Positions 14,434 through 64,000 of a stretch of 64,000 nucleotides of DNA are shown piece after piece. The notes under the pieces were generated by a model that had not been told where the DNA came from, searched no databases, and saw nothing but the letters and a program-made list of their open reading frames with translations. Both the position numbers and the translations under genes were made by a program. Source of the stretch: Candidatus Latescibacterota bacterium. Its GTDB lineage: Bacteria; Latescibacterota; UBA2968. The stretch covers positions 992,001-1,056,000 of the forward strand of contig OZ242311.1 of assembly GCA_965207885.1 (NCBI GenBank). Direction: 5' to 3'. Within the stretch, counting starts at the first letter, position 1, and every line of letters begins with the position of its first letter.

Positions 14434-14450
14434 TTCAGAAGATTTTGGTT

Positions 14451-14482
14451 GTCATCGCGGCAGGGTTTTAGCCGCGATCCAG
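14451..14482 (+). repeat. REP-like palindrome copy
   Basis: GTCATCGCGGCAGGGTTTTAGCCGCGATCCAG. Confidence 0.9.
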
Positions 14483-14509
14483 TCTCAAATAGTTTTTAGA
14501 GGGGTGTGT

Positions 14510-49271: not shown

Positions 49272-49949
49272 ATGAATATGCGGTGGATCATCGGTTTGTT
49301 TTTTGTCGGGTGTGTTATAGTACAACAGGTCTGGGCGGAGACATCATTGGGGTTGCCGGTTGAGGGTGTTCAGACGATTGTGTTGCGCAATGAGGTGGGT
49401 AAGAATCAGATTCAGTTTGTGAGTTCGGCACCGCTGGAGGAGATACACGGTACAGCGTCGGAGATTTCGGGTGCGTTGATACTGGATCCGGCAAATGTGG
49501 AGGGTTTGACGGGGAAGATTGAGGTGCAGGTTGCGAGTATGGAGACGGGTATCGAGAAGCGCGACGCGCATTTGCATAGCGCGGATTGGTTGGATGAAAA
49601 ACAGTTTCCGGTGATTGGGTTTGAGATTGCGGGGTTGAAGGATGTGTCTGTGGAGGCAGGGGAAGATAGGGCTGTGATTAAGGGATTGGCAATGGGGACG
49701 TTTTCACTGCACGGCGTGGATAAGGAGATGGAGATTCCTTTTGAGGCGACGTATTTGCTGGCGTCAGAGCAGACAAAGAAGCGCGCGCCAGGGGATTTTT
49801 TTGTGGTGAAGGGCGAGTTTCCGATTGCGTTGAAGGATTTTGATATTGCAGGTGCGCGCGGGCTGGTGGGTAACCGGGTTGGGAAGAAGATCGATTTGAA
49901 GACGAATTTTTTTGGTTCGACGATGAGAAGTGAGAAGGATGAAGGGTGA
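49272..49949 (+). CDS. YceI-family protein
   Basis: Signal peptide; 'TGIEKRDAHLHSADWLD..QFP.I.F', 'GTFSLHGV'. Confidence 0.88.
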   Translation: MNMRWIIGLFFVGCVIVQQVWAETSLGLPVEGVQTIVLRNEVGKNQIQFVSSAPLEEIHGTASEISGALILDPANVEGLTGKIEVQVASMETGIEKRDAHLHSADWLDEKQFPVIGFEIAGLKDVSVEAGEDRAVIKGLAMGTFSLHGVDKEMEIPFEATYLLASEQTKKRAPGDFFVVKGEFPIALKDFDIAGARGLVGNRVGKKIDLKTNFFGSTMRSEKDEG

Positions 49950-50124: not shown

Positions 50125-50157
50125 ATAAAAATGCACCAATTCTGAAAAAAATGAAAA

Positions 50158-50195
50158 AATAAGAGATATTCGGAAGGAATAAGAGATATGCGGAA
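50158..50195 (+). promoter_or_regulatory. 18-bp direct repeat, candidate regulator-binding site
   Basis: AATAAGAGATATTCGGAA (50158-50175) and AATAAGAGATATGCGGAA (50178-50195); 20-bp period. Confidence 0.4.
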
Positions 50196-50613
50196 TCTTT
50201 TTGGGTTGAACTTATAGACGCGATGGTGTTATCATAAAAAAGCCGCTGACAAGACCAGGACAAGTCAAGTGTCAGCGGCAGCAAATATCTCAAGCTGATA
50301 ACTTGAGAAGGTTAAACAAAGGTAGCGACCTGAAGCGCGATTGTCAATGTGAATATAATGTTCAATACAAAAAGAGAAAATTGAACGATGTGTTCACTTC
50401 TCAATTCGATAGTCAGCTTGAACTTTATTCTACAATACTCTCTATATGGAATAAAAGTAACGCCTTAAAAAAATTATTATTTGAACAATTCATATTGGCA
50501 TACATGTTGCATGTATCTGTTTAAGCAGTAAAAAATCTGTTTTGAATCGTGTGGAAAGTCAGGCTCTAAGCCTCAAATATTTTAGACAGCGTTTTATCGC
50601 CCCGGAGAAAAAT

Positions 50614-51405
50614 ATGAACAAACAGAAAATTCTGATTATAGATCACGACCCCGGCATTCTATCGACCCTTGTCGGATTTCTGAGCGATGAACCTTATGAC
50701 GTTTGCACGGCGAGCAATGGGAAAGAAGGGCTTGAAATTTTGAGACGAGAGAAGATCGATCTCGCCATCGCTGAAATGTATATGGGAGGTCTTGATGGGG
50801 TCGCGCTTTTAAAGCGCGTTGCAATAGAGAAAATTCAGACAAACGTCCTGATCATGGAAAATGTTGTGCCTCTGGAAGTAGCCGAAAAAATACTCAAGGC
50901 CGGTACTGCAGGCGTATTGGACAAACCGACCAATAAGGACAGATTTTTGGCACAGATCAAAAACTGTATCCTACTAAATGAAGTGGAATACACTGGGGCG
51001 CGGGTCTATGAAGCACCTCGTTCACTGTCCAGACCCTCCTTCGCCCGAGTGCCTGCTTCGCAAGAGGCATTGGAATCATTTTTGGAGGAGCGTTACAGAG
51101 ATCCAGACCTGAAATTTGAAGACCTTACGCGCTATTTTGGTATCTCGCTGTCGCGTGGTCACGAGCTGTTTAGAAAACATTTTGACAGGACCTTCCGTGA
51201 AAAACTGAGGGAGGTCAGAATAGCACAGGCAGAGCATTTTTTAACACACTCATCACTGTTGATATATGAAATTGCACGCCTATGTGGGTTTCGCGGATCA
51301 AATCGTTTCTCTGAGGATTTCAAGAGGATACATGGCTTTTCTCCTACCCAGTATCGTAAAAAGTTTATGCGCGGAGAAATTCAGTCGTTTTCGGAAGATG
51401 TCTGA
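50614..51405 (+). CDS. Receiver(-like) domain + AraC HTH transcriptional regulator
   Basis: 'ILIIDHD', 'IDLAIAEMYM', 'DKP'; C-terminal 'IYEIARLCGF..FSEDFKRIHGFSPTQYR'. Confidence 0.88.
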   Translation: MNKQKILIIDHDPGILSTLVGFLSDEPYDVCTASNGKEGLEILRREKIDLAIAEMYMGGLDGVALLKRVAIEKIQTNVLIMENVVPLEVAEKILKAGTAGVLDKPTNKDRFLAQIKNCILLNEVEYTGARVYEAPRSLSRPSFARVPASQEALESFLEERYRDPDLKFEDLTRYFGISLSRGHELFRKHFDRTFREKLREVRIAQAEHFLTHSSLLIYEIARLCGFRGSNRFSEDFKRIHGFSPTQYRKKFMRGEIQSFSEDV

Positions 51406-51477
51406 GTTCAATGTTCATTTGATCGGTCTAAATCTATCGGTGTTAGCCGTTATCGCAACCTGTCTTATGTCTCCAGT

Positions 51478-52656
51478 ATGGCTTTAGCCACCAGACAGCC
51501 TGAATCTGATCATGAGATCAAGCTAAAGGGCTTCGAATTTATAAGATTCTTCATTCTGTCTATTATCGCATTGAGTATTCTGCTTATTGCAGGGGTTGTG
51601 ATTTTAGGCTGGGATGTCGAAATGGAAATTAGTGTTGAGGCGTCGGGGCACGTTGAACCCGTTGAGAAAAAATTTGTCAAATCAGAGACCGTGGGGACGA
51701 TAGAGAAGGTGCTTATTCACGCGGGTCAGCAGGTCGCAAAAGGGGATACGCTTTTTGTTCTCGGTGCTTCAGAGTGGAGAAAAGAGGCCGCGAAAATAGA
51801 AAAAGAGATTGCAATTAATCAACGACAGAGAGAGGAACTCAGAGAGACATTATTTTTTGATCGGCAAAGGATAGAATCAAGTCTTGACCAGGCGCGGCTC
51901 GAACACGAAGCAAGCGGTCTTAGGCTTGAACAGATTTTACAGGAGCAACAATTGTATCAAAAATATCTGAAAGAGAGAAAGGAACGGACACGACCTCTTG
52001 AGACGCTTTTACCTGTAAAACTTCAGGAGAACAATCTCAACCGTGTTCAGCAACGCATGACCTATCTGAAAATTGAGCGTGATGCTCTGGCTGTTAGAGA
52101 GAAAGAAATCCAAACTTTGAAACTGGTGGGGGATAAGCTCATGCAAGAACGCGATTGGATTCAGGAACAGATACGGAAAACCACCATCACTTCCCCAATC
52201 GCAGGTATTATTCTGACATCAGATATTGAGACGATTGAGGGCGATAGGGTTTCGGTTGGTAGTCCGGTATTGGAATTGGCGCAGTTAAATGAATGGCAGG
52301 CGAGGGTTTTTGTGCAAGAGGTGGATATTTCAAAAATTGAAATGGGTCAAGATGTCAAATTGTACATCCATGCGTTTCCGCATATGAGTTACAAAATTTT
52401 TAGTGGTAGGGTGAGTGAATTGCCCAGCCGGAATCAAGTCGTGCCTCCCAATGCAACGGCTCTGACATTATACCCGGTGAAGATATTGATCGATGAACCT
52501 TTTGTTCGCAGTGGTGATCAGGTCTATCCGGTGGCGTATGGCATGCGGTTAGATGCGAAGATCATTATTGAAAGAAATTTTTTATGGGAAATTGCGTGGA
52601 AAAAGATAAAAGAGGCTTTTAGTATCGTTGACAAGAAAAATCCGTTGGTTTTTTAA
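51478..52656 (+). CDS. HlyD-family membrane fusion protein
   Basis: N-terminal TM, 'V.ASGHV', lipoyl halves 'GQQVAKGDTL' and 'ITSPIAG', coiled-coil core. Confidence 0.88.
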   Translation: MALATRQPESDHEIKLKGFEFIRFFILSIIALSILLIAGVVILGWDVEMEISVEASGHVEPVEKKFVKSETVGTIEKVLIHAGQQVAKGDTLFVLGASEWRKEAAKIEKEIAINQRQREELRETLFFDRQRIESSLDQARLEHEASGLRLEQILQEQQLYQKYLKERKERTRPLETLLPVKLQENNLNRVQQRMTYLKIERDALAVREKEIQTLKLVGDKLMQERDWIQEQIRKTTITSPIAGIILTSDIETIEGDRVSVGSPVLELAQLNEWQARVFVQEVDISKIEMGQDVKLYIHAFPHMSYKIFSGRVSELPSRNQVVPPNATALTLYPVKILIDEPFVRSGDQVYPVAYGMRLDAKIIIERNFLWEIAWKKIKEAFSIVDKKNPLVF

Positions 52657-52687
52657 TTGATGACAGGCAAACCGGAGATCGGGAATC

Positions 52688-54403
52688 TTGACGCAAATAT
52701 TCACTATTGTTAAGATGCTGCGGCCTTATTGGCGGTATATCATTCAGTCGCTTTGTGTTGGCATTTTGTTTATGTTGTTTCAGATACCAGGACCTTATTT
52801 CACGAAAATAATGATCGATGACGTATATCCGCATAAAGATTTCTCTCTGTTGAATTTTGTTCTGTTGTTGGGCATGCTCATGTCATTGGGTGTAGGCGGG
52901 ATGAGGTTTATCAGTGGGTATTTTGGTCAGTGTGTTGGCATCCGGATGGGGTATGATTTTCAAGCGCGTTTTTACAAACATATACAAACGTTGGATTTTG
53001 GTTTTTTTGATAGCCGGGAGACGGGTGAAATACTATCTCGATTTCGAGATATGCGAAGTTCAATTGCCAGTGTTATTAGTTTGATTAACACGCTGATTAT
53101 CAATTCGCTCCAACTCCTAATTTTTCCGCCCATTCTGTTCTTTATCAATTGGAAACTGGCACTGATTAGCCTTACAGTTTTGCCCTTTGACACGCTGTTG
53201 GTTATGATTTCAAGACGGTTTATCCGCAAATATACAAGGGAAGTTGCAGAACGCTCAGCAGAGTTATCGGCGAAAAATTACGAGTCCATCTCTTCAATTA
53301 GAACAGTGCAGTCTTTGGGGTTGGAAGCTTCATTTTTTCAGAAGCTACAGGGATTGTTCATCGGTGTGGCAAATTTGAGAATGAAAGTGTCGCTTTTTTC
53401 GGGCACAACGGGATATGCCAGCACCATTATCAAGACAGGCGGAACACTTGCCTACGGCTTCTACGGATGGCACGAGGTGTTATCTGACAATTTGACGTTG
53501 GGAAGTTATATGGCTTTTACGGGCTATGTGGGGTATTTGTATGGACCCATAAAAAGTCTCATTGGCCTGTTGCGGCGCATCGAATCCACGCTGGTTCATA
53601 CAGATCGCTTTTTTGAAGTCTATAATATTACGCCTGACATACGCGATGAACCGCAGTTGGCTGAACTCAACGGGGTTCGTGGAAGGATAGAGTTTCGAGA
53701 TGTCAATTTTGCATATCAGCCCGAAAGGGTGGTGTTGAACGAGATCAATCTCCAGATTGACGCCGATCAAACAGTCGCCATTGTTGGAAGAAGTGGGTCG
53801 GGCAAATCTACCCTGGCAAAGCTCATTCCGAGGTTCTACGATCCAGTGGATGGGCAGGTCTTGATCGATGGGGTCGATATCAGGCAATACCGTCTCAATT
53901 CTCTGCGACAAAATATCGGCTTTGTGATGCAAGGCAGTGCGCTGTTTCAGGGGAGTATTTTGGAGAATCTGACGTTTAACAAACCCATTTCCATGATTGA
54001 TGTCGAAGCCGCAACCCGGGCAGCCTATATCCACGATTTTGTCACGAAGCTCCCCAACGGCTATCACACTGTCATCGGTGAGCAGGGGGCGCAACTTTCA
54101 GAGGGGCAAAAGCAGAGGGTCGCACTTGCACGAGTGCTACTACAGAACACACCCATCTTGATTTTGGATGAACCCACTGCGGCACTGGATAACGAGTCTG
54201 AGTTTTATATTCAAGAAGCGATGAAGGAAATTTGCAAACAAAGAACAGTGATCGTCATTGCCCATCGTCTGTCAACCATCCGGCGTGCAGACAAAATCGT
54301 GGTCATCGACCAGGGAAGAATTGCTGAGGAAGGCAGCCACGAGGTTTTGATGCTGCAAGATGGTGTTTATTCCATGCTCCAGGAGAGAGCAGCGAGGATT
54401 TGA
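52688..54403 (+). CDS. ABC exporter (TMD+NBD) of peptide/type I secretion type, no C39 peptidase domain
   Basis: 'GRSGSGKS', 'LSEGQKQR', 'DEPTAALD', 'IAHRL'; 571 aa. Confidence 0.9.
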   Translation: MTQIFTIVKMLRPYWRYIIQSLCVGILFMLFQIPGPYFTKIMIDDVYPHKDFSLLNFVLLLGMLMSLGVGGMRFISGYFGQCVGIRMGYDFQARFYKHIQTLDFGFFDSRETGEILSRFRDMRSSIASVISLINTLIINSLQLLIFPPILFFINWKLALISLTVLPFDTLLVMISRRFIRKYTREVAERSAELSAKNYESISSIRTVQSLGLEASFFQKLQGLFIGVANLRMKVSLFSGTTGYASTIIKTGGTLAYGFYGWHEVLSDNLTLGSYMAFTGYVGYLYGPIKSLIGLLRRIESTLVHTDRFFEVYNITPDIRDEPQLAELNGVRGRIEFRDVNFAYQPERVVLNEINLQIDADQTVAIVGRSGSGKSTLAKLIPRFYDPVDGQVLIDGVDIRQYRLNSLRQNIGFVMQGSALFQGSILENLTFNKPISMIDVEAATRAAYIHDFVTKLPNGYHTVIGEQGAQLSEGQKQRVALARVLLQNTPILILDEPTAALDNESEFYIQEAMKEICKQRTVIVIAHRLSTIRRADKIVVIDQGRIAEEGSHEVLMLQDGVYSMLQERAARI

Positions 54404-54545
54404 TATGTTCAAAGCAAAGTGCCCAATTCTAAAAGCACCTCTTGACAAGGAAAGGAGGTAAATGAAAAATCACTACACGGTGCTTTGTCCATAGTGAATG
54501 GAAAACATTCACCGATTTCTAATTTTTACAGTATTGGAGGATCAC

Positions 54546-55022
54546 ATGCAAAAGCTGGTGAAAAGAAGGATGCATTACGAAACCATTATGCCCGTTGAGG
54601 CTTATGACGATGAAAAAAAGAAAGAGGATGAGAACACGGCCGATATTATTGGTGCTTCTCTTACGTTTCTGGGTATAGTAGTAACGACGTCTGGGGGTCC
54701 TGTTAGCCAAGCTGCAGGAATGCTTCTCGCTGGCGGGGGTCTCGCGACTACGGCTATCCATAATGAACAATTTACAGAGACAGCAAGAGAAGTAGCTACT
54801 GTTGAGGCAGAGACTGATTTAATAATATCTGAGGGTCTCGTAGATGCAGGCAGTGCTGGAGCCAGTGCTATAGGTGAAGGAATCTTAGCTGTAGGTGCTG
54901 CTGTCGAAGCTGTAGAAGAATTTGCCGGACATGTAGCCGAGAGAGCACCACAGGCGATGGCAGATGCGGTTACAGAAATGGTTGAGACGATAACCGACTT
55001 TGGGGACGATGGCGGAGGTTAA
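54546..55022 (+). CDS. Candidate secreted precursor protein (158 aa) with CLI_3235-like leader
   Basis: SD GGAGG (54536-54540) before ATG 54546; leader MQKLVKRRMHYETIMPVEAY; Gly/Ala-rich hydrophobic core; directly follows the exporter. Confidence 0.65.
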   Translation: MQKLVKRRMHYETIMPVEAYDDEKKKEDENTADIIGASLTFLGIVVTTSGGPVSQAAGMLLAGGGLATTAIHNEQFTETAREVATVEAETDLIISEGLVDAGSAGASAIGEGILAVGAAVEAVEEFAGHVAERAPQAMADAVTEMVETITDFGDDGGG

Positions 55023-55088
55023 TTCAAATAAACCTACATTTCGTTGTAAATTAAAAATGTAGTATGGGCCAGTTTTTATGGATCATTG

Positions 55089-55126
55089 CAGGTATTGCAC
55101 TCTTGTATATTTGAGTGCAATACCTG
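55089..55126 (+). other. Perfect 14-bp stem-loop after the precursor gene (mRNA stabiliser or attenuator)
   Basis: CAGGTATTGCACTC / GAGTGCAATACCTG; no clear U-tract. Confidence 0.6.
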
Positions 55127-55175
55127 AATTGCTCATTCTTCCCCGAAACTTGATAGCAAGAATAAGAGAAGCTGT

Positions 55176-56087
55176 ATGCTTAAATCATTTTCAAAAATCG
55201 AGACAAAAAAAATCCTGATTTACTTTCTCTTACTTTTTTTTCTCTTAGGATGTATTCATGCTATTCTAAAAATTACAGGTAATATAAGTCCTGGGGAAAC
55301 ACCTCCTTGGGGTATATGGATCTTCATTTTTTTTATAATCTGGATGTTGTTCAACTTGCGAAGACCTGGTAAGACCTTGAGTGAATTATTAGGTACCAAT
55401 ATTACCTTTTCAAAATTGGAAGTTATGGCCATATCCATGGGGAAATTCTTGCTGGCTTTTGGATTTACAATTCTGGTTCTTCGCCCATTATTTGGTTTTG
55501 AGATAGGTTCCATGTATTTGATGCGCTACAAATTAAGTATGGGACATTTTTCATTGGACCCAATACATTTTATTAAATTGATAATTTTATCTCCAATAGC
55601 AGAGGAATTGTTCTTTAGGGGCTATTTGCTGCAAAGGCTTTCGGCCAAATGGGGATTGAAAACTGGGTTGTTCATTTCCGCCGTTATCTTTTCTGTCGTG
55701 CATCCAAATATCTTTAGTGCTTTGATTTTGGGTCTTTTGACTACGCTCATTTATGTCAAAACTCAAAATATCTTCGCTCCAATCTTGTGTCATAGTCTTA
55801 GTAATGCCTTCGTTGTTTTTAGATTTTTTCTCATATACAGTTTCGCCAGGTTGGAATCTTTACTCCAGATCAATGTCTCTCTAACCACCTTTGGTCTGAT
55901 CTTGCTCATTCCTGGCTTCTTGATCACAGGTTATTTTATTTTTAAACTCTGGTCTGTATTAAACGATCCGCCTGACGGTGCATCTGTCTCCGCCCCTTCT
56001 TGCGCTACCGCAGACAAGTATGATGTGTCGGCAGACAAGGATACTACAGACAGGCTTGCTCAGCAGACGAGTCAGGACGGTAATTAA
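55176..56087 (+). CDS. CPBP/Abi (type II CAAX) intramembrane protease
   Basis: 'PIAEELFFRG', 'FSVVH', 'CHSLSN'. Confidence 0.9.
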   Translation: MLKSFSKIETKKILIYFLLLFFLLGCIHAILKITGNISPGETPPWGIWIFIFFIIWMLFNLRRPGKTLSELLGTNITFSKLEVMAISMGKFLLAFGFTILVLRPLFGFEIGSMYLMRYKLSMGHFSLDPIHFIKLIILSPIAEELFFRGYLLQRLSAKWGLKTGLFISAVIFSVVHPNIFSALILGLLTTLIYVKTQNIFAPILCHSLSNAFVVFRFFLIYSFARLESLLQINVSLTTFGLILLIPGFLITGYFIFKLWSVLNDPPDGASVSAPSCATADKYDVSADKDTTDRLAQQTSQDGN

Positions 56088-56258
56088 ACCAAGTTCTTAA
56101 AGAAGGCAGGAAATCTTCTCATCCAGGGTGGAGGACCTGAAAAATGCCGATAGATTTAAAAAAATTTTATACCTGCCCGAATGTGGACATCCTGTGGGGT
56201 GGTGGCGCAAATTCCGTACGGAAGTAAAGGATCCGCCGATACCCCTAACCCATTTGAA

Positions 56259-57260
56259 ATGAAAACGATGCCTAAAAATAAAGTCCTATCTCATATTGGT
56301 GCAGCCATAAATCATGTTTATGGGCCTGCAAGCATAGACTATAAGCCTACAGAACTGGTCGTGTTGTGTCTGGTTCGCGATGGGCAAGCATACATGCGAA
56401 CATTTATTGAACATTATTTGGGACTTGGAATCCGGCATATCATTTTTTTGGATAATGGTTCAAAAGACAGGACGATTGCCATTGCCAGGCAGTATCCCCA
56501 AATATCCATCTTTTCTACCACGCTGTCGTATAAAGAATATAAATATCAAATGAAGGAATATTTGATTCGCCGGTTCGGGCAGAACAGATGGTCACTCTAC
56601 GTGGATATTGATGAACTGTTCGACTTTCCATCATCGGATAAAATCCGCATAAGAGACCTTTTGGAATATTTAAACGTTCATTCATTTACCGCAGTCGTGG
56701 CGCAAATGCTGGATATGTTTTCGGAAGATACGTTAGCAAATTTGCCCGATGCAGAATCGACTCCCCTAAAGGATGCTTGCAATTATTACGATTTGTCGGA
56801 TATCGCTAAAGAAGCGTATTCAGATTCTGAATTTTGTCCTCATAATTTTGTTTCCAACCAAAGGATTGCCCATCATAAAGGTGGCATAAGACAGACGCTT
56901 TTTGGTGCAGATTGTTCTTTAACGAAACATCCGCTTATTTTTTTAGATGACGAGATCAAACCTATGTGTGAGTCTTCTCATAAGATCGAAAATGGATATA
57001 TCGCAGATATTACAACTGTGCTCTACCATTTCAAATTTATCGATGGTTTTGAAAACCTCACTCAAAGGGCGGTGCATGAAGAGAATTACTGGATGGATTC
57101 ACGAGAATACAAAAGATATTATGAAGTCATGAAACGCGACCCCAATCTCGTGATAAAACAGAAAACTTCGAGAAAGCTAAACAGCATTGACGAATTGGTG
57201 GAGTGCGGATTTCTTGTTGTTTCGAAAAATTTTCAGAATTGGGGTGTCATAGGCAGTTGA
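56259..57260 (+). CDS. GT-A fold glycosyltransferase (GT2-like); start uncertain
   Basis: 'VRDG...FIEHY..LG', 'FLDNGSKD', 'YVDIDE', 'HFKF'. Confidence 0.85.
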   Translation: MKTMPKNKVLSHIGAAINHVYGPASIDYKPTELVVLCLVRDGQAYMRTFIEHYLGLGIRHIIFLDNGSKDRTIAIARQYPQISIFSTTLSYKEYKYQMKEYLIRRFGQNRWSLYVDIDELFDFPSSDKIRIRDLLEYLNVHSFTAVVAQMLDMFSEDTLANLPDAESTPLKDACNYYDLSDIAKEAYSDSEFCPHNFVSNQRIAHHKGGIRQTLFGADCSLTKHPLIFLDDEIKPMCESSHKIENGYIADITTVLYHFKFIDGFENLTQRAVHEENYWMDSREYKRYYEVMKRDPNLVIKQKTSRKLNSIDELVECGFLVVSKNFQNWGVIGS

Positions 57261-57288
57261 TATACGGAGATTTGATTGCGAGTCTAAA

Positions 57289-58320
57289 ATGAAAAAAGAG
57301 TTGCCTATAGGAATGCCCCGGATTACTTGCGCGCTTCATCATGCGTATCCGCTGTCCATATTGGCAATCTCGGATGATTATCTCCCCTGGTTTTATAGCC
57401 ATTATATCCAGATGGAATACGAAACAGACCATAAATATAGATTCAACTTTTATCGCTACCCCCACTATCTTGTGTCTGTATCTCCTTGGTTGCAAATTCA
57501 GATGATGCATCATAATGTCGTTCGCAGGGCGTATAAAAACGCGGTAGATTTCGTTAAAGACGCCATCAATGAAAATTTATATATCCAAATGGATGTCGAT
57601 GAGTTTTATATCCCTCACAAAGAGTTGTACAATCGTCACCATTACACGCGCGAATTGCTTATTTACGGATATGACTCACTAAATCAAACCCTTAAGACGC
57701 TGGGCTTTAACGCAGAGGGGAATTATACGTCGAACAATGTTTCTTTTCGTCAGTTTGAGGAAGCTCATATAAATTCTATCTCAAACAATGAGCAGGATTG
57801 CAGAGTATTTATGTTCAGATATATAGATAACGCACAATATGAATTCGACCTCAATGCCGTTCTTGAACAACTGCAAGATTATCTCTATGCAGTCAACACG
57901 TCGAAAAGATTCAGGAGTTTAGCACCTGTCAAAAACTATGCTTATGGTCTTGCGACATATAGGGTTATTCAGAATTATCTTTTGTTTAAGGCTGACAATG
58001 CAAGTGATATTAACCGTATAACTTTTCACACGCTTTGGGAGCATAAAAAATGCATGACAGAACGTCTTAATTTTTTGGAACAACACGGATTTTTAAGTTC
58101 ATCTTTTGGGTTGCAGATGGCTTATGAAAGCGTAGAAAAAAAGACACAGCAATTGCGCGCCATGTCTTTTAAGTATGTCCTGACAAAAGATACTGCGATT
58201 GTAGAAAGGATGGTTGAATTGATCAACATAATCGCGTCGGAAGAGAAGCAGATATTAGTGCGTGTTTGTGCTGCTCTGAAGAGCGGGATGGAGGGGATTA
58301 ATAATTCCAACACGGTTTAG
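57289..58320 (+). CDS. Papain-fold BtrH/C39-like protein, paralogue 1
   Basis: 'VDEFYIP...LLIYGYD', 'YGLATY', 'LWEHKKCM'; similar along its length to 61219-62255. Confidence 0.65.
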   Translation: MKKELPIGMPRITCALHHAYPLSILAISDDYLPWFYSHYIQMEYETDHKYRFNFYRYPHYLVSVSPWLQIQMMHHNVVRRAYKNAVDFVKDAINENLYIQMDVDEFYIPHKELYNRHHYTRELLIYGYDSLNQTLKTLGFNAEGNYTSNNVSFRQFEEAHINSISNNEQDCRVFMFRYIDNAQYEFDLNAVLEQLQDYLYAVNTSKRFRSLAPVKNYAYGLATYRVIQNYLLFKADNASDINRITFHTLWEHKKCMTERLNFLEQHGFLSSSFGLQMAYESVEKKTQQLRAMSFKYVLTKDTAIVERMVELINIIASEEKQILVRVCAALKSGMEGINNSNTV

Positions 58321-58377
58321 TGTGTACCCAACTCGATTACTGCGTAACGTCGTAAATCAAGAGAGGAGACATACAGT

Positions 58378-58836
58378 ATGAAAACACGAATCATCATATG
58401 GGTGGCCTCACTGGTCTTAACAGGGGCACTTAATGTAGTCGCAGAAGAAATGCCTGACCCGGCTTCTGTATCCAAGATAGCGGATATCAAACGCCTGATG
58501 GAAATAACCGATGTACGCAATCTTGGCAGGAAAATTATGAATCGGCTGGTTCTCACCATGAGGAAAGGTCGTTCAGCAGTTCCTTGGGATGATTTCATGG
58601 CTGAATTTGACGTCAATGAGTTTATTGAAATGATTATACCCATTTACGACAAGCATTTCACCCATGAGGAAATCAAGCAACTGATCGCATTTTATGAGTC
58701 TCCTATAGGGAAAAAGATGATTAAAGTTCAACCTCAACTTATGATGGACAGCATGGCAGCGGGCGAAGAGTGGGGAAAAAAGTTGATCAAGAGAGTCAAG
58801 GAAAAACTCCACGAAGAAGGATATGAAAAAAACTAA
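58378..58836 (+). CDS. DUF2059 domain secreted protein
   Basis: Signal peptide; 'IYDKHFTHEEIKQLIAFYESPIGKK'; SD GAGGAG. Confidence 0.88.
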   Translation: MKTRIIIWVASLVLTGALNVVAEEMPDPASVSKIADIKRLMEITDVRNLGRKIMNRLVLTMRKGRSAVPWDDFMAEFDVNEFIEMIIPIYDKHFTHEEIKQLIAFYESPIGKKMIKVQPQLMMDSMAAGEEWGKKLIKRVKEKLHEEGYEKN

Positions 58837-59018
58837 TCTATGCGTCACACCATTTTTGATTGCGCTGAAAAATTTATTTGGAAAAATGTGCGGTAATTGA
58901 GCGACAGTTATTCGTCTATCGGGTGGTTCGCACAAGGCGGTGATCATCGCTCTATTTACCTATCAAAACGCGGATAGCTGAGTTGTATGGACTTGAACCG
59001 GATATTTAATGGCTTGTT

Positions 59019-60950
59019 ATGTATATCATACAGAAAAAATACAAATGCAATTTCCATGATCTAAGCGGAGAAGGTGTCAAGGTTGCAATTATCGATAGCG
59101 GGATTGATCGTTCTCATGAAGTGTTGCAGCGTGTGACCGCAGGAATCTGTTTTGAGTTTTCTGCGGGCAATGTCCTTACGTCTGAAGACTATCGAGACAC
59201 ATCTGGTCATGGCACTGCGGTTGCGAGTATTATCAAAAAGAAGGCTCCGGGTACAGAGCTATATGCTATAAAAATCTTCGATCAATCTCTGATTGTCGAA
59301 CAAAAAATTCTCCTTGAATCCATTCGCTGGGCAATTGATCAGAACGTCGATATCATCAATCTGAGCCTTGGGACAACAGACATCCAGGTCAAGAATGCTC
59401 TGTTGGATATATGTAAGGTGGCAACGAAAAAGGGTATCGCAATCGTCGCTGCCGAACACAATTCAGGGCAGGAGAGTTATCCCGCCTATTTCTCCAATGT
59501 GATCGGTGTGAAGGCGGGGGAGATAAAAGGGCGTTACAATTATCTGTTTTGTGCAGGAGAGTCTATTGAATGTATCGCACCTGGAACAACGCAGCGCGTT
59601 CTCTGGACAGGTGGGCGAGAGCATATTGTTGAAGGCAGTAGCTTTGCTGCGCCTCACCTCACGGGCATTATCGCATTAATCAAACAGGCCTTTCCCAAAG
59701 CCAATCTGAATGAGATCAGACACATATTAGAGGTGAATGCCAGTCGAGAAGTGCAGCAACAAATCCCTTCAGGTCGCAAGATTCGGGTGCATACTCCCCA
59801 AACGTCCCAATCCTTTGATCCAAACAAGATTAAAAGAGCAGCTATTTATCCCTATAACAAGAAAATGCATAGTCTAATGCGTTTCAGGGAGTTGTTAAAT
59901 TTTGAAATTGTGGGTATCGCTGATCCCATTGCCAAAGGTTATGTTGGGAAAGATGCTGGTGAAGCGATTGGCATACCGCCCGTTGGCATACGGGTTCAGC
60001 CGCGATTTCAAGAGATATTGAAAGAGGCTGATACGCTTATTCTGGGCTATGTAGATGAACTGAGTCGAATTACTAAAAAGAATGTCCTGCGCGAGAGTAT
60101 TGAGAAGGCCATTGATGCCAACTTAAATGTGTTCAGCTTTCTGTCCGTTTATCAGAAGGATTTAAGAGATTTGATTGATAAGGCTCGTAAAAAGAACCTC
60201 TGGATTTATTCGCCTGACGTTCATCAAAATGACCTGCTCAAAGCACTTCAGCCCCACAATAATCCAGCCGTTGATGTGCCAGTTATCGGTGTTTTTGGCA
60301 CGAGTGCTCAACAGGGTAAGTTCACTGTTCAACTCGCCTTGAGGTCAAAGCTGATAAAAGAGGGATATAAGGTTGGGCAAATCGGTACCGAACACCATTC
60401 TCAGTTATTTGGAATGGATGTGGCATTTCCAACGGGCTACGCCTCTCCACTGCAATTTCCAATACAGCTTCACGCGCCTTATCTGGATTTCAAAATGCGC
60501 GAGATCTGTGCGAATAAGAAACCGGATTTAATGCTTGTCGGGGCACAGTCGGGAAGTATCCCCTATGATGTCCATGAGCCGGGAAATCACACGCTTTCAA
60601 CACTTGTTTTTATGCTGGGTACAAAACCCGATGCCAATATATTGGTCGTGAATAGCGTTGATGATGGCGAGTATATACGCGATACCATGAACACGCTCAA
60701 GGCAATTACCAAAGGCCCCGTGTTATGCCTCGCAATGAGTGATAAAGAAAAACACATCCGAGCAGCTTATGGCCGAACACTGATTAGTCCGCGTCAAATG
60801 TCAAAAGAAGAAATCAAAGAGAAATTGGCGTATTTGGAGGATAGATTTGAGATTCCAGCTATAGAGATTGTGTCAGAGGAGGGGCAACAGAGGATGGTTG
60901 ACCTCATTATAAGCTACTTTGCAGATGAGCAAGAAGGAGGGGATGTATGA
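59019..60950 (+). CDS. S8 subtilase fused to a TIGR04066/DUF1611-like (Rossmann + P-loop-like) domain
   Basis: Triad motifs 'IIDSGID', 'GHGT', 'GSSFAAP'; C-terminal 'PVIGVFGTSAQQGKF', 'GTKPDANIL'; no signal peptide. Confidence 0.85.
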   Translation: MYIIQKKYKCNFHDLSGEGVKVAIIDSGIDRSHEVLQRVTAGICFEFSAGNVLTSEDYRDTSGHGTAVASIIKKKAPGTELYAIKIFDQSLIVEQKILLESIRWAIDQNVDIINLSLGTTDIQVKNALLDICKVATKKGIAIVAAEHNSGQESYPAYFSNVIGVKAGEIKGRYNYLFCAGESIECIAPGTTQRVLWTGGREHIVEGSSFAAPHLTGIIALIKQAFPKANLNEIRHILEVNASREVQQQIPSGRKIRVHTPQTSQSFDPNKIKRAAIYPYNKKMHSLMRFRELLNFEIVGIADPIAKGYVGKDAGEAIGIPPVGIRVQPRFQEILKEADTLILGYVDELSRITKKNVLRESIEKAIDANLNVFSFLSVYQKDLRDLIDKARKKNLWIYSPDVHQNDLLKALQPHNNPAVDVPVIGVFGTSAQQGKFTVQLALRSKLIKEGYKVGQIGTEHHSQLFGMDVAFPTGYASPLQFPIQLHAPYLDFKMREICANKKPDLMLVGAQSGSIPYDVHEPGNHTLSTLVFMLGTKPDANILVVNSVDDGEYIRDTMNTLKAITKGPVLCLAMSDKEKHIRAAYGRTLISPRQMSKEEIKEKLAYLEDRFEIPAIEIVSEEGQQRMVDLIISYFADEQEGGDV

Positions 60951-61216
60951 ATGATGATCTAAAGATACAGATAAAACAGACGATTGTGCGTGCGTTAAAC
61001 CTTGAAATTGATCCCGAAGAGATAGGAGATTCAGATGTGCTTTTTGGTGGAGAAATGGGTCTCAATTCAATGGCAATGGTTGAACTCGTTGTGGGCATAG
61101 AAGATGAATTTGACCTTGAAATCTCAGATGAAGATCTGAGTGCCGAAGTTTTTAAAAGTGTGCAGACGATTGAAGATTATATCCGGTCTGTGCGTGAGTG
61201 CGTTTTGACTGCCTGA
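60947..61216 (+). CDS. Acyl carrier protein
   Basis: Acidic, 89 aa; 'GLNSMAMVELVVGIEDEF' with the Ppant Ser; ATGA overlap with the protease gene. Confidence 0.85.
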   Translation: MNDDLKIQIKQTIVRALNLEIDPEEIGDSDVLFGGEMGLNSMAMVELVVGIEDEFDLEISDEDLSAEVFKSVQTIEDYIRSVRECVLTA

Positions 61217-61218
61217 AA

Positions 61219-62255
61219 ATGAAAAAATCGCTTCCCATCCAGTTATCCCCACCCATCCACGGCTATCCCCGCCATGGCTACCGACTTTCGATTATGTCGC
61301 TTCACGATGCGTATATTCCCTGGTTCTTCTGCAATTACATACAGCTATTCGCCGTTGATCTGTTAAATGAGAGCAAACACAACATCCGATTCAACTTCTA
61401 TTTTCAGGGTCCATACTCCCCGCCGTGGCTGTCTATCTACACCGTTCCACGGCGATCAATTGCTAAAGTCTATCATCAGATTGTGCCGTTTATTCGAGAT
61501 CAGATTGATGAGGGTTTTTATGTCCAGTTGATGGCCGATGAGTATTTCCTGCCGATGAGTATTTCCTGCCGCATACGCCATTTTATGAGAAGATACATCA
61601 TCCACATGCTATTATGGCATTTGGATACGATGACGATACAGAAACGCTTGAGACTCTGGGATTCAATAGAGCGCGGGACTACTCTGTTTCAAGGGTTGGA
61701 TATTCAGATTTTGAAGCGGCGTTTCGCTGGGTTGATCCCGAGAAACGCAGATCGTACCTGGTGACTCTTTTTGAGTATAATGAGGACGGTATCTATGAGT
61801 TTGACATTGATGCTGTCATTGACCAGTTGCGAGCCTACATCCATTCAGAGAATCCGTCTATTCACTATCGGATGTTGCGTAAGCCGGTTGAAGGCGTTTT
61901 TGGGATGGCGACGTATAAGCTCTTGCGAGATTATTTTACGCATTTGTTTGTTCAGCCTCGGTTGTGGGATCGGCGGCATCTGTTCACGCTTTGGGAGCAC
62001 AAGCGTTGTATGTTAGACAGGCTTGCTTATCTGGAAGAGCGCGGGTATTTGCGTCCGTCAGACCAGTTTCATCAGGCGTACAAGGAGGTCGAGCATAAGG
62101 CGCATCAGATTCATCTGATGATGCTTAAATTGCGAGCGTTGGTGGAGGTCAAGAGAGCGTGGGATGTGGATCGTATTTTGAAGATTATCACCTTGTTAGA
62201 TGATATTTCTCAAAGGGAAGAGCGCATTCTGAAGGATGTTTTGAAGGCGCTTTGA
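61219..62255 (+). pseudogene. Papain-fold BtrH/C39-like paralogue 2, frameshifted by a 17-bp tandem duplication
   Basis: GCCGATGAGTATTTCCT repeated at 61534-61550 and 61551-61567; removing one copy fuses the two ORFs into 339 aa. Confidence 0.85.
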
Positions 62256-62278
62256 AACGCGTACACGATAGCACATAG

Positions 62279-62322
62279 AATCCCCTATTGCGCGTTATTG
62301 CGATGGGGGATTGGTTTTTTTT
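62279..62322. terminator. Hairpin/terminator between the island and the convergent DUF58 gene
   Basis: Imperfect stem AATCCCCTATTGC/GCGATGGGGGATT followed by a T-run. Confidence 0.5.
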
Positions 62323-63211
62323 ACATCAATTTTTTGCGTTTGGCGAGGTAGTTGAAGAGGGCGGTGTCAAAGGGTTCCGAGGTTTCGAGGAGGACGTAGT
62401 CGATCATGGCTTCGCGGCATTCGCGGCGAAAGCGGTTGATGAGGGTTTCCATGTGATCTCGGTACTCGGGTGCGAGGTGCCAGGGTTCTGTGGCGATTTG
62501 CGTGCCGGATTCGAGATCGACAAAGCGCATTTCACGGTTGAAGTCGAGGTCGCGCTCTCGGGGGTCCAGGATGTGGAAGACGATGACTTCGTGGTTGCGA
62601 TGGCGAAAGTGTTTGAGGCCGTTGAGCAGGCGGTCTGGGTCGTCGAAGAGGTCGGAGATGACGATGACGAGGCCGCGACGCACAATGCGTTCTGCCAGTT
62701 CGTGAAAGGTGGCGGCGAGGTCGGTGTCGGTGCCTTCGGGGCTGGTGTTTTGAAGTGTGGTGAGGAGGGTGTGCAAATGACTGGTGACTGACCGGGGCTG
62801 CAAATACGTGCGAATGCGGTCGTCAAAGGCGATTAATCCGACGGCGTCGCGCTGGCGCAACATGAGGTGGGATAGGGCGGCTGCGGTATAAGATGCGTAT
62901 TGGTATTTGGTGATGGCGTCCGAGCCATAAGCCATTGAGGCACTGGCGTCTATGAGAAGATGGGATTTGAGGTTGGTTTCTTCTTCGTATTGTTTGACGT
63001 AGAGGCGGTCGGTTTTGCCAAATACTTTCCAGTCCAGGTCGCGCAGTGAGTCCCCCGGCATGTATTGCCGGTATTCAGAGAATTCGACAGAGAAGCCGTG
63101 ATAGGGGCTTTGATGTAGGCCGGTGATAAATCCTTCGACGACCATGCGGGCGATCAGGTCCAGGCGCGCGAGCCGGGAGACGACTTCTGGTTTGAGATAT
63201 TCCTGGTTCAT
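62321..63211 (-). CDS. DUF58 domain protein (MoxR-associated)
   Basis: 'GLHQSPYHGFSVEFSEYRQY.PGD', 'VKQYEEE', 'DASASM', 'ISDL'. Confidence 0.92.
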   Translation of the reverse strand: MNQEYLKPEVVSRLARLDLIARMVVEGFITGLHQSPYHGFSVEFSEYRQYMPGDSLRDLDWKVFGKTDRLYVKQYEEETNLKSHLLIDASASMAYGSDAITKYQYASYTAAALSHLMLRQRDAVGLIAFDDRIRTYLQPRSVTSHLHTLLTTLQNTSPEGTDTDLAATFHELAERIVRRGLVIVISDLFDDPDRLLNGLKHFRHRNHEVIVFHILDPRERDLDFNREMRFVDLESGTQIATEPWHLAPEYRDHMETLINRFRRECREAMIDYVLLETSEPFDTALFNYLAKRKKLM

Positions 63212-63213
63212 CC

Positions 63214-64000
63214 CTAAAAGCCCGCGGCGAGGAGTATCCAACCCGCAACGGCACCGCCAACGACCAGCCATACTGCGCCGATTCCGCGCCACAATATCAG
63301 AATGGATGCGATGCCTGCGATTGCCATTTTGGGTATTGAATCAAGGGTTAGATAGCCCAGTTCTATTGTTACAGCGGCCATCAATCCCACGGCACAGACG
63401 TTTACGGCGTCGAGAAAAGACGCCACCCATTCAGATTCTCGCAGCCGGGGCAAGAGGGGATTCAGGGCGGCGACAAATACAAAGGAGGGTAAGAAGATTG
63501 CGCCAGCAGCGACGAGTGCGCCGGATAATTTGCCGCCGGTGACGAGATAGCCGATGAAGGCTGCGGTCGATAATACGGGTCCGGGCGTGAACTGGCCGAT
63601 GGCAATGGCTTCCAGCAATTGTTCCTGCGTTAGCCAGGCATACCCCTGTACAAGTTCTTCTTCGAGGAATGCAATGAGTAAGTATCCGCTGCCGTAGAGG
63701 ATTGCGCCAATTTTTAGAAAGAATAGGCCCAGTGCCCAGAGTGTTGGTCCTGCTGCGGATACGGCGCCCTGACTTGCGAGCATTGTCAATCCAGTGCCGG
63801 CCACAGGTGCTATTACGGCCATGTGTTCGCGGTCTCTCGGTCGCGTCATTCTCAGCCAGAACATTCCGACGATTCCGCCGCCGATCAGTGCGAGGACGCC
63901 GTTAAATGGCGTGAGGGCTACGAGCATTACAGCCAGGCCCAGAAAGCTCAATCGCCAGCCTTTTACGGCTTTTTGCCCCAGTCGCCACAGTGCGCCCAGG
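63214..64000 (-). CDS. chrA: Chromate transporter (ChrA family), 5' end beyond the window
   Basis: 'FLKIGAILYGSGY', 'GQFTPGP', 'IFLPSF'. Confidence 0.88.
   Translation of the reverse strand, partial: LGALWRLGQKAVKGWRLSFLGLAVMLVALTPFNGVLALIGGGIVGMFWLRMTRPRDREHMAVIAPVAGTGLTMLASQGAVSAAGPTLWALGLFFLKIGAILYGSGYLLIAFLEEELVQGYAWLTQEQLLEAIAIGQFTPGPVLSTAAFIGYLVTGGKLSGALVAAGAIFLPSFVFVAALNPLLPRLRESEWVASFLDAVNVCAVGLMAAVTIELGYLTLDSIPKMAIAGIASILILWRGIGAVWLVVGGAVAGWILLAAGF

Follow-up and report, generated by a model that had tools for sequence, protein, structure and literature searches.

A Latescibacterota gene cluster with a subtilisin-DUF1611 fusion enzyme, an acyl carrier protein and a leader-bearing precursor: a candidate system for a secreted bacteriocin-like protein

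The closest described counterparts of the locus analyzed here are the CLI_3235 (CcpM) cassettes of Firmicutes (TIGR04065, TIGR04066, the radical SAM enzyme TIGR04068, TIGR04069, and S8 proteases), exemplified by the SacP23 locus of Paenibacillus polymyxa (PMC10731318). In the accessible part of that paper, the roles of the TIGR04066 protein and of the acyl carrier protein (ACP) homolog are guessed by analogy only, and in the accessible part of another paper the name CcpM occurs only as an annotation (PMC9062424). In this study, we examined a 64,000-nucleotide stretch from a Candidatus Latescibacterota bacterium (positions 992001-1056000 of C1, a 6.2-Mb single-contig genome; hereafter, the window). 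In it, a block of eleven genes between yceI and DUF58 encodes a precursor protein, a fusion of an S8 protease with a TIGR04066-type DUF1611 domain, an ACP, two BtrH-like proteins (X1 and X2), and an ATP-binding cassette (ABC) exporter with an HlyD adaptor. Since about 2011, the TIGR04066/TIGR04069 pair has carried the label "peptide maturation system", and no chemistry assigned to it was found in the searchable literature. The locus is a member of a large Latescibacterota family whose tight core is the fusion gene together with the ACP gene. As a whole, it is best explained as serving the production, maturation, export, and self-protection of a secreted bacteriocin-like protein, a reading to which we give a probability of about 0.55.

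What the window shares with the CLI_3235 cassettes is the company of genes: a DUF1611 protein of the TIGR04066 type and a small carrier protein stand together with a subtilase, an ABC exporter, and a ribosomal precursor that bears a leader; in neither system does the TIGR04066-ACP pair have an established function. In contrast to the cassettes, the S8 and TIGR04066 parts of the window form one polypeptide, the block has no radical SAM gene, and the precursor is a Cys-free protein of 158 aa that is not of the TIGR04065 type. The block also adds BtrH-fold proteins, the HlyD adaptor, and a CPBP intramembrane protease, and its host is a diderm of an uncultured phylum. All hidden Markov model (HMM) scores stayed below the cut-offs: TIGR04066 aligned with the fusion enzyme over model positions 1-360 of 361 (E 6e-43, 147.2 bits; cut-off 200), the ACP, a generic one, scored 21.9 bits against TIGR04069 (cut-off 70), and TIGR04065 matched 0 of 19 precursors at E<=1. 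Radical_SAM had no match among the 16 window proteins scanned, and the best radical-SAM/TIGR04068-like matches of the genome, at 1.389, 1.888, and 5.335 Mb, are more than 330 kb away from the cluster at 1.042-1.054 Mb. An earlier interpretation made from the letters of the window (the sequence-only reading) had assigned the block to CLI_3235-type machinery; none of the four family thresholds was reached in the HMM check, and that assignment is not supported. Its description of the block itself held: gene calls and GC content (0.37-0.48 within the block, 0.50-0.57 beyond) agree with eleven genes, all on the + strand, in AT-richer DNA, and both the missing radical SAM enzyme and the 158-aa precursor ORF with a Cys-free core were confirmed. 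We read the locus as a distinct, uncharacterized variant.

The export side recalls two other groups. Class II microcins and Cdz are exported by a peptidase-containing ABC transporter (PCAT), an HlyD adaptor, and TolC, and the window resembles these systems on several counts: the precursor carries a leader at its N-terminus and a hydrophobic core segment rich in Gly and Ala, a membrane-fusion protein accompanies the ABC exporter, TolC is encoded in trans, and candidate immunity genes are adjacent. With the LanT/LanP pair, it shares the combination of a C39-less exporter and a subtilisin leader peptidase. Unlike in these systems, the leader ends in Ala-Tyr instead of Gly-Gly, the cytoplasmic peptidase is fused to DUF1611, and a putative thiotemplate module is added. 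The C39 domain and double-glycine leader that mark PCAT systems are both missing from this exporter and precursor, while an HlyD gene is adjacent to the exporter gene and the outer-membrane factor is encoded in trans. The exporter lacks an N-terminal C39 peptidase domain, as the sequence-only reading had said, because its alignments to the bacteriocin/HlyB models TIGR01846, TIGR01193, and TIGR03796 begin only at model positions 137-153. The same reading had placed TolC and the phosphopantetheinyl transferase (PPTase) in trans, in agreement with the genome: 14 OEP half-domain matches correspond to seven TolC-like genes, all outside the block, and one PPTase gene lies elsewhere. A literature search, with subscription-only papers and bioRxiv supplements outside its reach, found neither an account of a system like this one nor a report linking DUF1611 or BtrH-type proteins to ribosomal peptides.

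A family of loci in Latescibacterota

A one-genome-per-species scan yielded 20 loci with relatives of the fusion enzyme, 19 in metagenome-assembled genomes (MAGs) of Latescibacterota and one in a Gemmatimonadota MAG. Forty further loci were added, several of which duplicate earlier ones and about six of which were chosen deliberately for a nearby radical-SAM match. Removal of identical proteins left 55 fusion genes, with near-duplicates (L031/L032 and L022/L053) still among them, and four genes with less than 5 kb of flank on at least one side were dropped to give 51. Neighbors were called by tblastn (E<1e-4, at least 50% query coverage) from a reference set of Pfam-annotated members. An ACP gene lies within 300 bp of the fusion gene in 39/51 cases and within 8 kb in 44/51. 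Nearby genes also encode an ABC exporter (42/51), an HlyD adaptor (32/51), a BtrH-like protein (29/51), or a protein with PP-binding and nonribosomal peptide synthetase (NRPS) condensation domains (4/51); one or the other of the last two is present in 33/51. A radical SAM gene occurs within 8 kb in only six, leaving 45/51 without one. Because this holds even in a radical-SAM-enriched sample, the radical-SAM-free state is the normal one in the phylum and not a peculiarity of this locus. The earlier notion of a coherent radical-SAM-free system around the fusion enzyme and the ACP is borne out by its recurrence, with exporter, precursor, and CPBP, across sister loci.

TIGR04066 matches at E<=1e-10 occur in 84 of the 168 Latescibacterota genomes and in 23 of the 49 genera, with up to seven per genome, and none of them passes the curated cut-off; 14 control genomes gave 0 matches. 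When a profile of the DUF1611-like domain was compared with 1.84 billion representatives, 1942 were found at E<=1e-3, 1340 at E<=1e-10, and 740 at E<=1e-30. A local HMM detected an S8 domain in 130 of the best 150 representatives as well, including 124 of the 125 with at least 560 aa. The names given to fusion relatives are only "S8 family serine peptidase" (Spirochaetales and Gemmatimonadetes MAGs) or the JGI label "epimerase". Near-identical DNA is present in a public run labelled sponge metagenome. A 4423-nt contig from an RNA library of a sponge-metagenome run spans 59037-61388 (the fusion gene, the ACP gene, and the start of X2) with 195 differences (about 92% identity); its source is a relative, and it does not prove transcription. 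The variable center of the block (54596-58655) is not covered by contigs in two public runs, a hole that shows nothing by itself. RNA runs with 0.07-0.09 of the words were left out of any judgment on habitat or expression.

Leader peptides and the fused protease

Nineteen precursors from different genera, small ORFs located beside the exporter genes, share a leader of about 20 aa with the consensus M-x-x-L-x-K-[K/R/P]…Y…[V/I/L]-x-A-Y, in which Cys stands for Tyr in two. The residue after the leader is H, D, E, G, or S, and the cores that come next are unrelated. Used as a search pattern, it recovered 31 ORFs in 27 of 54 loci, of which 14 ORFs (10 loci, including triple tandem arrays in L048 and L050) were absent from the set used to build it; neither 1.09 Mb of mononucleotide-shuffled loci nor the 44 kb of unrelated window sequence gave a match. 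The VEA/VEAY leader ending noticed in the sequence-only reading is therefore conserved well beyond the window.

At E<=0.01, 47 proteins with lengths of 124-157 aa were found to be related to the window precursor; none is functionally named, and one is listed as a "hypothetical protein" of a Gemmatimonadetes MAG. In its closest subfamily (22 aligned), 15 leader positions are invariant (MQKLVK, Y11, I14, and PVEAY), with an overall identity to the window precursor of 32-73%. The cores of this subfamily start with an acidic run, continue with about 40 hydrophobic, Gly-rich residues up to a conserved H-x-E and with amphipathic acidic helices, and close with a tail that is conserved as either GDDGGG (the window type) or DDPxVQxYGE. 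The window core (138 aa) contains 26 Asp+Glu, 5 Lys+Arg, 43 Gly+Ala, and 0 Cys. No Pfam or NCBIfam family matched the precursor, and the best feature score in the ESM Atlas was 0.85, with only hypothetical clusters among the hits.

The fusion enzyme consists of a cytoplasmic subtilisin (residues ~1-255; Peptidase_S8, 2.9e-31) and a TIGR04066/DUF1611 domain resembling DgcN (residues ~272-643). The catalytic Asp26, His64, and Ser208 of the S8 domain are invariant in 36/36 fusion proteins, as is the P-loop G427-T428…Q432-G433-K434 (G-T-x4-G-K). The nearest solved relatives of the S8 domain are true subtilisins (BPN', 5.5e-28). True subtilisins prefer a hydrophobic residue at P4 and Tyr at P1, and V-E-A-Y provides both. 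From this fit, the true-subtilisin relatives, and the invariant triad, we infer on good grounds that the S8 domain cleaves the precursor after Tyr20. A complex prediction of the fusion enzyme with precursor residues 1-60, run without controls, gave scores of 0.31 and 0.29 against a mark of 0.32, which speaks neither for nor against the cleavage. Among specific S8 models, QhpE (NCBIfam NF049966) is the best for the N-terminal domain (1.3e-40, 139 bits). QhpE, from quinohemoprotein amine dehydrogenase maturation, is a cytoplasmic S8 protease that removes the leader from a modified polypeptide. The window domain differs in staying below the model cut-off of 165 and in lacking QhpC, QhpD, or QhpG partners.

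Both Pfam halves of the C-terminal domain passed their gathering scores (DUF1611_C, 43.8 vs 25; DUF1611_N, 23.3 vs 22.6). Its structural model (predicted local distance difference test score, pLDDT, 86.8) was matched by Foldseek to 2obn (3.4e-13), 2g0t, and DgcN 7xrj (1.1e-10), and more weakly to the CoA-binding domain of succinyl-CoA synthetase. The domain shares with the first three a Rossmann-like N-domain, a P-loop C-domain (TM-scores, 0.52-0.68), and the conserved G-T-x4-G-K loop. Judging from the PDB title, we take DgcN 7xrj to be an acyl-CoA-dependent DUF1611 N-acetyltransferase. Identity to these structures is 14-17%. In contrast to DgcN, the window domain forms one chain with a protease and has an ACP as its partner in place of free acetyl-CoA.

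Short precursors stand in triple arrays in two loci (L048:1792-3110 and L050:1437-2748). Their leaders are of the type MNRLIKPQKQSY…QVLAY. The hydrophobic cores of 44-53 aa include Cys and have GYI at the C-terminus in most cases.

The carrier protein and the BtrH-fold proteins

The fusion and ACP genes overlap by ATGA (translational coupling), and X2 starts 2 nt past the ACP stop codon. The attachment Ser (GLNSM) is conserved in 50/50 distinct cluster ACPs. X1 and X2 are paralogs with 34-36% identity. An AlphaFold2 (AF2) model of X1 (pLDDT 93.9) was matched by Foldseek to CtaG (2.8e-8, TM-scores 0.47-0.52), AziU2/U3 (4e-8), and CcbD (4.6e-5); all fold matches have a probability of 1.0, TM-scores of about 0.5, and E values from 2.8e-8 to 7e-5, and they include a CcbD complex with a peptidyl carrier protein (PCP) domain. 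CtaG-class papain-like ligases, with BtrH and AsbE among them, work with a Cys-His-Asp triad and receive their acyl groups from carrier proteins, according to the accessible part of their description (PMC12865890). X1 has the bipartite fold, papain-like plus helical, of the CtaG, BtrH, AsbE, CcbD, and AziU2/U3 ligases (PDB 9qvk, 7yn1, 9dks, and 8gs1), and a dedicated carrier protein gene stands next to X2. The X proteins differ from these ligases in having only 11-13% identity, an incomplete triad, a motif of their own, and a place in a ribosomal-peptide cluster instead of a small-molecule pathway. Neither X1 nor X2 (X2a and X2b) matched BtrH_N (PF14399) at E<=10, and X1 matched no Pfam family at all at that level; 14 of 49 aligned X homologs did match BtrH_N (best, 1.8e-6). 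The earlier label "BtrH-like" is thus right at the level of fold, since the structure matches CtaG-class ligases, and needs qualifying as to the Pfam family and the triad.

The triad positions, set by sequence alignment and helix position instead of structural superposition, are occupied by Cys14/Arg121/Asp129 in X1 and by Gly/His/Asp in X2, leaving the Cys-His-Asp triad incomplete in both. Among 49 X proteins, the Cys/His positions are filled with Gly/His in 30, with Cys/Arg in five (including X1), and with Cys/His in only four. The family has an invariant W-E-H-K-x-C-M motif in its helical domain, plus W34, Q41, G127, G220, and E319, suggesting a conserved active or binding site. Searched against PDB sequences, the X-family profile gave only a chance-level match to RpoN (E 0.12). 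A complementary X1-X2 heterodimer like AziU2/U3 is unsupported, because most loci have a single X gene.

In sister loci L031, L033, and L045, proteins with BtrH_N and DUF4872 have the Cys, His, and Asp positions filled. In others (L029 and its relatives), a 907-aa protein with PP-binding and condensation domains directly follows the ACP. Therefore, carrier-dependent acyl transfer is a recurrent theme of the family. The protein of about 900 aa after the ACP (L029:10958-13681; also L020, L027, L049, and L059) begins with an unassigned part of 370 aa, ahead of the PP-binding and NRPS condensation domains.

These features bear on whether the cargo is modified at all. X1 and X2 might be catalytically dead and serve as scaffolds for binding the leader or the ACP. 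In that case, an unmodified class-II-like protein would be processed and exported by the S8 protease and the ABC/HlyD pair, and DUF1611 and the ACP, doing no chemistry on it, would act as a CoA/phosphopantetheine-sensing or a regulatory or chaperone device. The nucleophilic Cys that most of the X family lacks, the missing ACP-loading enzyme in the block, and cores too variable for a sequence-specific tailoring enzyme would fit such an arrangement. However, the invariant ACP Ser, the invariant residues that the X family keeps as its own, and the canonical BtrH-type enzymes or NRPS condensation domain at the equivalent place in sister loci argue against it, and we regard the scaffold explanation as unlikely.

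Homologs of the GT2_4 glycosyltransferase of the block occur in 3 of the 31 genomes of the taxonomic family, and each adjoins an X-family gene and an S8-DUF1611 fusion gene. In L070, the order is ACP, GT28, GT2_4, X1 (Cys/Arg type), GT4, fusion enzyme, regulator, and a Cys-rich precursor of 68 aa whose leader is of the type described above; in L071, the X protein beside GT2_4 is of the Gly/His type. GT2_4 and X thus form a mobile accessory pair serving unrelated cores. Glycosylation by GT2_4 is plausible; no PDB sequence matched the protein at E<=1.

The glycosyltransferases also raise the possibility that the thiotemplate module (DUF1611, ACP, X, and glycosyltransferases) makes a separate small molecule, such as an acylated amino sugar or an acyl-amino acid, which is exported alone or joined to the protein C-terminus like the siderophore moiety of a class IIb microcin. 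Amino sugars are the acceptors in the characterized cases of BtrH and CcbD. Class IIb microcins carry a negative charge, are rich in Gly, and receive a C-terminal modification from a glycosyltransferase and acyltransferase-like proteins. The GT2_4-X pairing in 3/3 genomes, the three glycosyltransferases beside X1 in L070, and the C-terminal tails conserved within subfamilies (GDDGGG and DDPxVQxYGE) are in line with this possibility. It is nevertheless improbable: a glycosyltransferase is present in only 8/51 loci, the thiotemplate core is fused to the leader protease, and the window block has no adenylation, ATP-grasp, or sugar-nucleotide genes.

Variable cargo, proposed pathway and gene content

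A second cluster lies about 100 kb downstream in the same genome (C1:1144800-1154700; L025:8806-18695). Its machinery is nearly identical to that of the window (HlyD, 98.7%; ABC exporter, 98.9%; fusion enzyme, 96%; ACP, 97%; X2, 91-93% over the aligned pieces, intact with 346 aa), while its precursor (152 aa) has the same leader and only 45% identity. Between exporter and fusion genes, the places of CPBP, GT2_4, X1, and DUF2059 are taken by four small proteins that all have two CxxC pairs and two predicted membrane helices. The orthologous site in two other species (isocitrate dehydrogenase (IDH)-yceI…DUF58; L010 and L011) holds the same machinery with other precursors and other sets of small membrane proteins. 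In other loci, the precursors come with one or two CPBP genes, with Yip1-domain proteins, or, where the cores are Cys-rich, with genes for thiol handling (redoxin, rhodanese, and MauE/DoxX). The cargo therefore varies in a cassette-like manner. Hypervariable cargo and co-varying membrane proteins within a conserved frame for export and maturation make up the classic bacteriocin-immunity signature, and this is the main reason why we read the product as an antagonistic protein.

Alternatively, the secreted proteins would not be toxins: polymorphic in nature, they could serve a sponge-associated bacterium in signalling or kin recognition or at its surface, with the variable membrane proteins as receptors or processing factors. 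A response regulator heads the cluster, the core is strongly acidic, unlike known bacteriocins, and the near-identical DNA comes from a run labelled sponge metagenome. Against this stands the same bacteriocin-immunity signature, namely hypervariable cargo, co-varying small membrane proteins, tandem precursors (L048 and L050), CPBP genes, and a dedicated ABC/HlyD exporter, and we consider such a role quite improbable.

The frame of X2 is broken in the assembly by an exact 17-bp tandem duplication (61537-61570), which neither the paralogous copy of this genome nor two orthologs contain. A 538-nt contig from the best-matching public run matches 61136-61690 with 0 other differences and without the extra 17 bases, and un-duplicated, in-frame X2 is found in contigs of two public runs, each from a different study. 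A contig can show that a form is present but not that another is absent; the in-frame form exists, and the duplicated form may be an assembly artefact or a minor variant. The repair of this last gene for which the sequence-only reading had called is probably unnecessary. That the locus is a decaying, horizontally acquired, non-functional remnant, as the AT-richer block and the X2 frameshift might suggest, is very improbable given ten other genes that are all open, the in-frame X2 in two runs, and the same chromosomal site occupied in other species of the genus.

We propose a pathway for the bacteriocin-like protein based on the gene cluster. The precursor would be recognized via its conserved 20-aa N-terminal leader, and the cytoplasmic subtilisin domain would cut it after Tyr20, with Val at P4 and Tyr at P1. 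The DgcN-like domain, the coupled ACP, and X2 may form a thiotemplate module that transfers a carrier-bound acyl group to the processed product; given the hypervariable cores, the new N-terminal amine would be the most economical target. GT2_4 and its constant neighbor X1 possibly constitute an optional glycosylation or glycan-acylation module. Export would proceed through the C39-less ABC exporter, HlyD, and a TolC encoded elsewhere, and the producer would presumably be protected by the CPBP protease and perhaps by the DUF2059 protein.

The steps are of unequal strength. Gene content, conservation, the leader family, the intact catalytic and attachment residues of the S8 domain and the ACP, the folds, and the cassette-like variation of cargo with membrane-protein genes are observed, whereas the cleavage site, any acyl or glycosyl modification with its position, toxicity, and immunity are deduced. 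Leader cleavage and export are well supported by inference, and we consider it quite probable that a leader-guided precursor is cut by the S8 domain after Tyr20, leaves the cell through ABC/HlyD/TolC, acts antagonistically, and is countered by membrane-protein immunity. Transfer of a carrier-bound acyl group onto the new N-terminus by the DgcN-like domain, the ACP, and X is a tentative proposal. The ACP-dependent acylation envisaged in the sequence-only reading remains conjectural because X1 and X2 lack the canonical triad and no ACP-loading enzyme (adenylating enzyme, acyl-ACP synthetase, or acyltransferase) was found in the block by Pfam and NCBIfam scans. Several points count against the proposed pathway: besides this missing enzyme and a Cys-His pair that is non-canonical in X1 (Cys/Arg) as well as X2 (Gly/His), the core has a net charge of about -21, while most membrane-active bacteriocins are cationic; no similarity of the precursor to known toxin or bacteriocin families was found; no CLI_3235 family threshold was reached; and the CPBP protease, a plausible candidate immunity protein, is assigned by position only.

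The protease-DUF1611 fusion and the ACP are a self-standing module that needs no radical SAM partner, travels with carrier-protein-dependent ligase folds, serves a large, previously unrecognized leader-peptide family with very diverse cargo, and is abundant in an uncultured phylum. The leader motif can be used for mining further precursors, and a compact operon of three to four genes with a defined substrate makes the chemistry directly testable. If thiotemplate chemistry on a ribosomal protein is confirmed, the locus could be more than a variant: it would merge the logic of ribosomally synthesized and post-translationally modified peptides (RiPPs) with non-ribosomal thiotemplate logic, independently of radical SAM enzymes and guided by the M-x-x-L-x-K…[V/I]-x-A-Y leader, and, with 740 clusters at 50% identity (E<=1e-30), such ribosomal products would be common across uncultured phyla. 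A new class of ribosomal natural products in which leader removal is coupled to thiotemplated acyl transfer onto the N-terminus, or onto a protein-linked amino sugar where glycosyltransferases are present, is a possibility that we hold with reserve.

Table 1. Features of the block and its flanks (window positions)
Feature	Position	Strand	Evidence or remark
yceI	49272-49949		left flank; monomeric isocitrate dehydrogenase (IDH) gene on the same side
Response regulator, receiver + AraC-type helix-turn-helix (HTH)	50542-51405	+	Pfam Response_reg 6e-19, HTH_18 7.5e-17
HlyD-family membrane-fusion (periplasmic adaptor) protein	51478-52656	+	Pfam HlyD_3, HlyD_D23; TIGR01843 84 bits, below cut-off
ABC exporter, 571 aa, transmembrane + nucleotide-binding domains	52688-54403	+	ABC_membrane, ABC_tran matches
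Precursor ORF	54498-55022, probable start 54546	+	158 aa from 54546; GGAGG 6 nt upstream
Leader MQKLVKRRMHYETIMPVEAY, 20 aa	54546-54605	+	conserved in alignments of relatives
CPBP/Rce1-like (CAAX) intramembrane protease	55176-56087	+	Pfam Rce1-like 1e-19, 71.1 bits vs cut-off 22.4
Glyco_tranf_2_4 (GT2_4), cytoplasmic family-2 glycosyltransferase	56181-57260	+	Pfam 3.3e-20
X1, BtrH/CtaG-fold protein	57289-58320	+	AF2 model + Foldseek
DUF2059 protein	58378-58836	+	Pfam DUF2059 5.6e-24
S8 + DUF1611_N/DUF1611_C fusion, 643 aa	59019-60950	+	Pfam + NCBIfam matches
ACP	60947-61216	+	PP-binding 1.7e-10, 41.4 bits vs cut-off 20.8
X2, paralog of X1	61219-62255	+	alignment to X1; frame broken at 61537-61570
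Terminator-like hairpin, 14 pairs + T-run	62279-62312	+	3' of X2, before convergent DUF58; consensus scan only
DUF58	62321-63292	-	right flank, convergent with X2

The orphan response regulator at the head of the block (Table 1) has homologs at the equivalent place in sister loci and is likely the cluster regulator. No support was found for a 73-aa ORF at 50303-50524. CPBP genes follow the precursor in many sister loci, and the window CPBP translation shows EExxxR, FxxxH, and HxxxN, which we take to be the motifs of this protease family. A role for CPBP as a C-terminal sorting protease, raised by weak NCBIfam matches to exosortase- and myxosortase-linked CPBPs, was rejected because the precursor has no C-terminal hydrophobic anchor. 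The DUF2059 protein has a hydrophobic N-terminus that, as read from the translation, resembles a signal peptide, and a DUF2059 gene also adjoins the fusion gene in L006 and L010.

At L025:12532-13275 and 13824-14517, L010:7441-9270, and L011:7996-9958, precursor genes are surrounded by arrays that encode two to five paralogs of 100-125 aa. The CxxC-array proteins have two CxxC pairs followed by two hydrophobic helices and are candidate immunity proteins; the two that were scanned (L025:12940-13275 and L025:13824-14192) matched no Pfam family. In L005 (7820-9880; also L007, L008, L011, and L036), a 686-aa TPR protein with an embedded Peptidase_C39_2-like domain is encoded between the precursor and fusion genes. 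A HepT/MNT-type toxin-antitoxin pair (L033:6477-7158) separates the BtrH_N/DUF4872 gene from the remainder of its cluster, and L012 and L016 are interrupted by insertion sequence (IS) elements (ISL3 and DDE). Just upstream of the three-glycosyltransferase cluster of L070, positions 5758-7050 hold nitrile hydratase alpha and beta genes and a gene for a pentapeptide-repeat protein.

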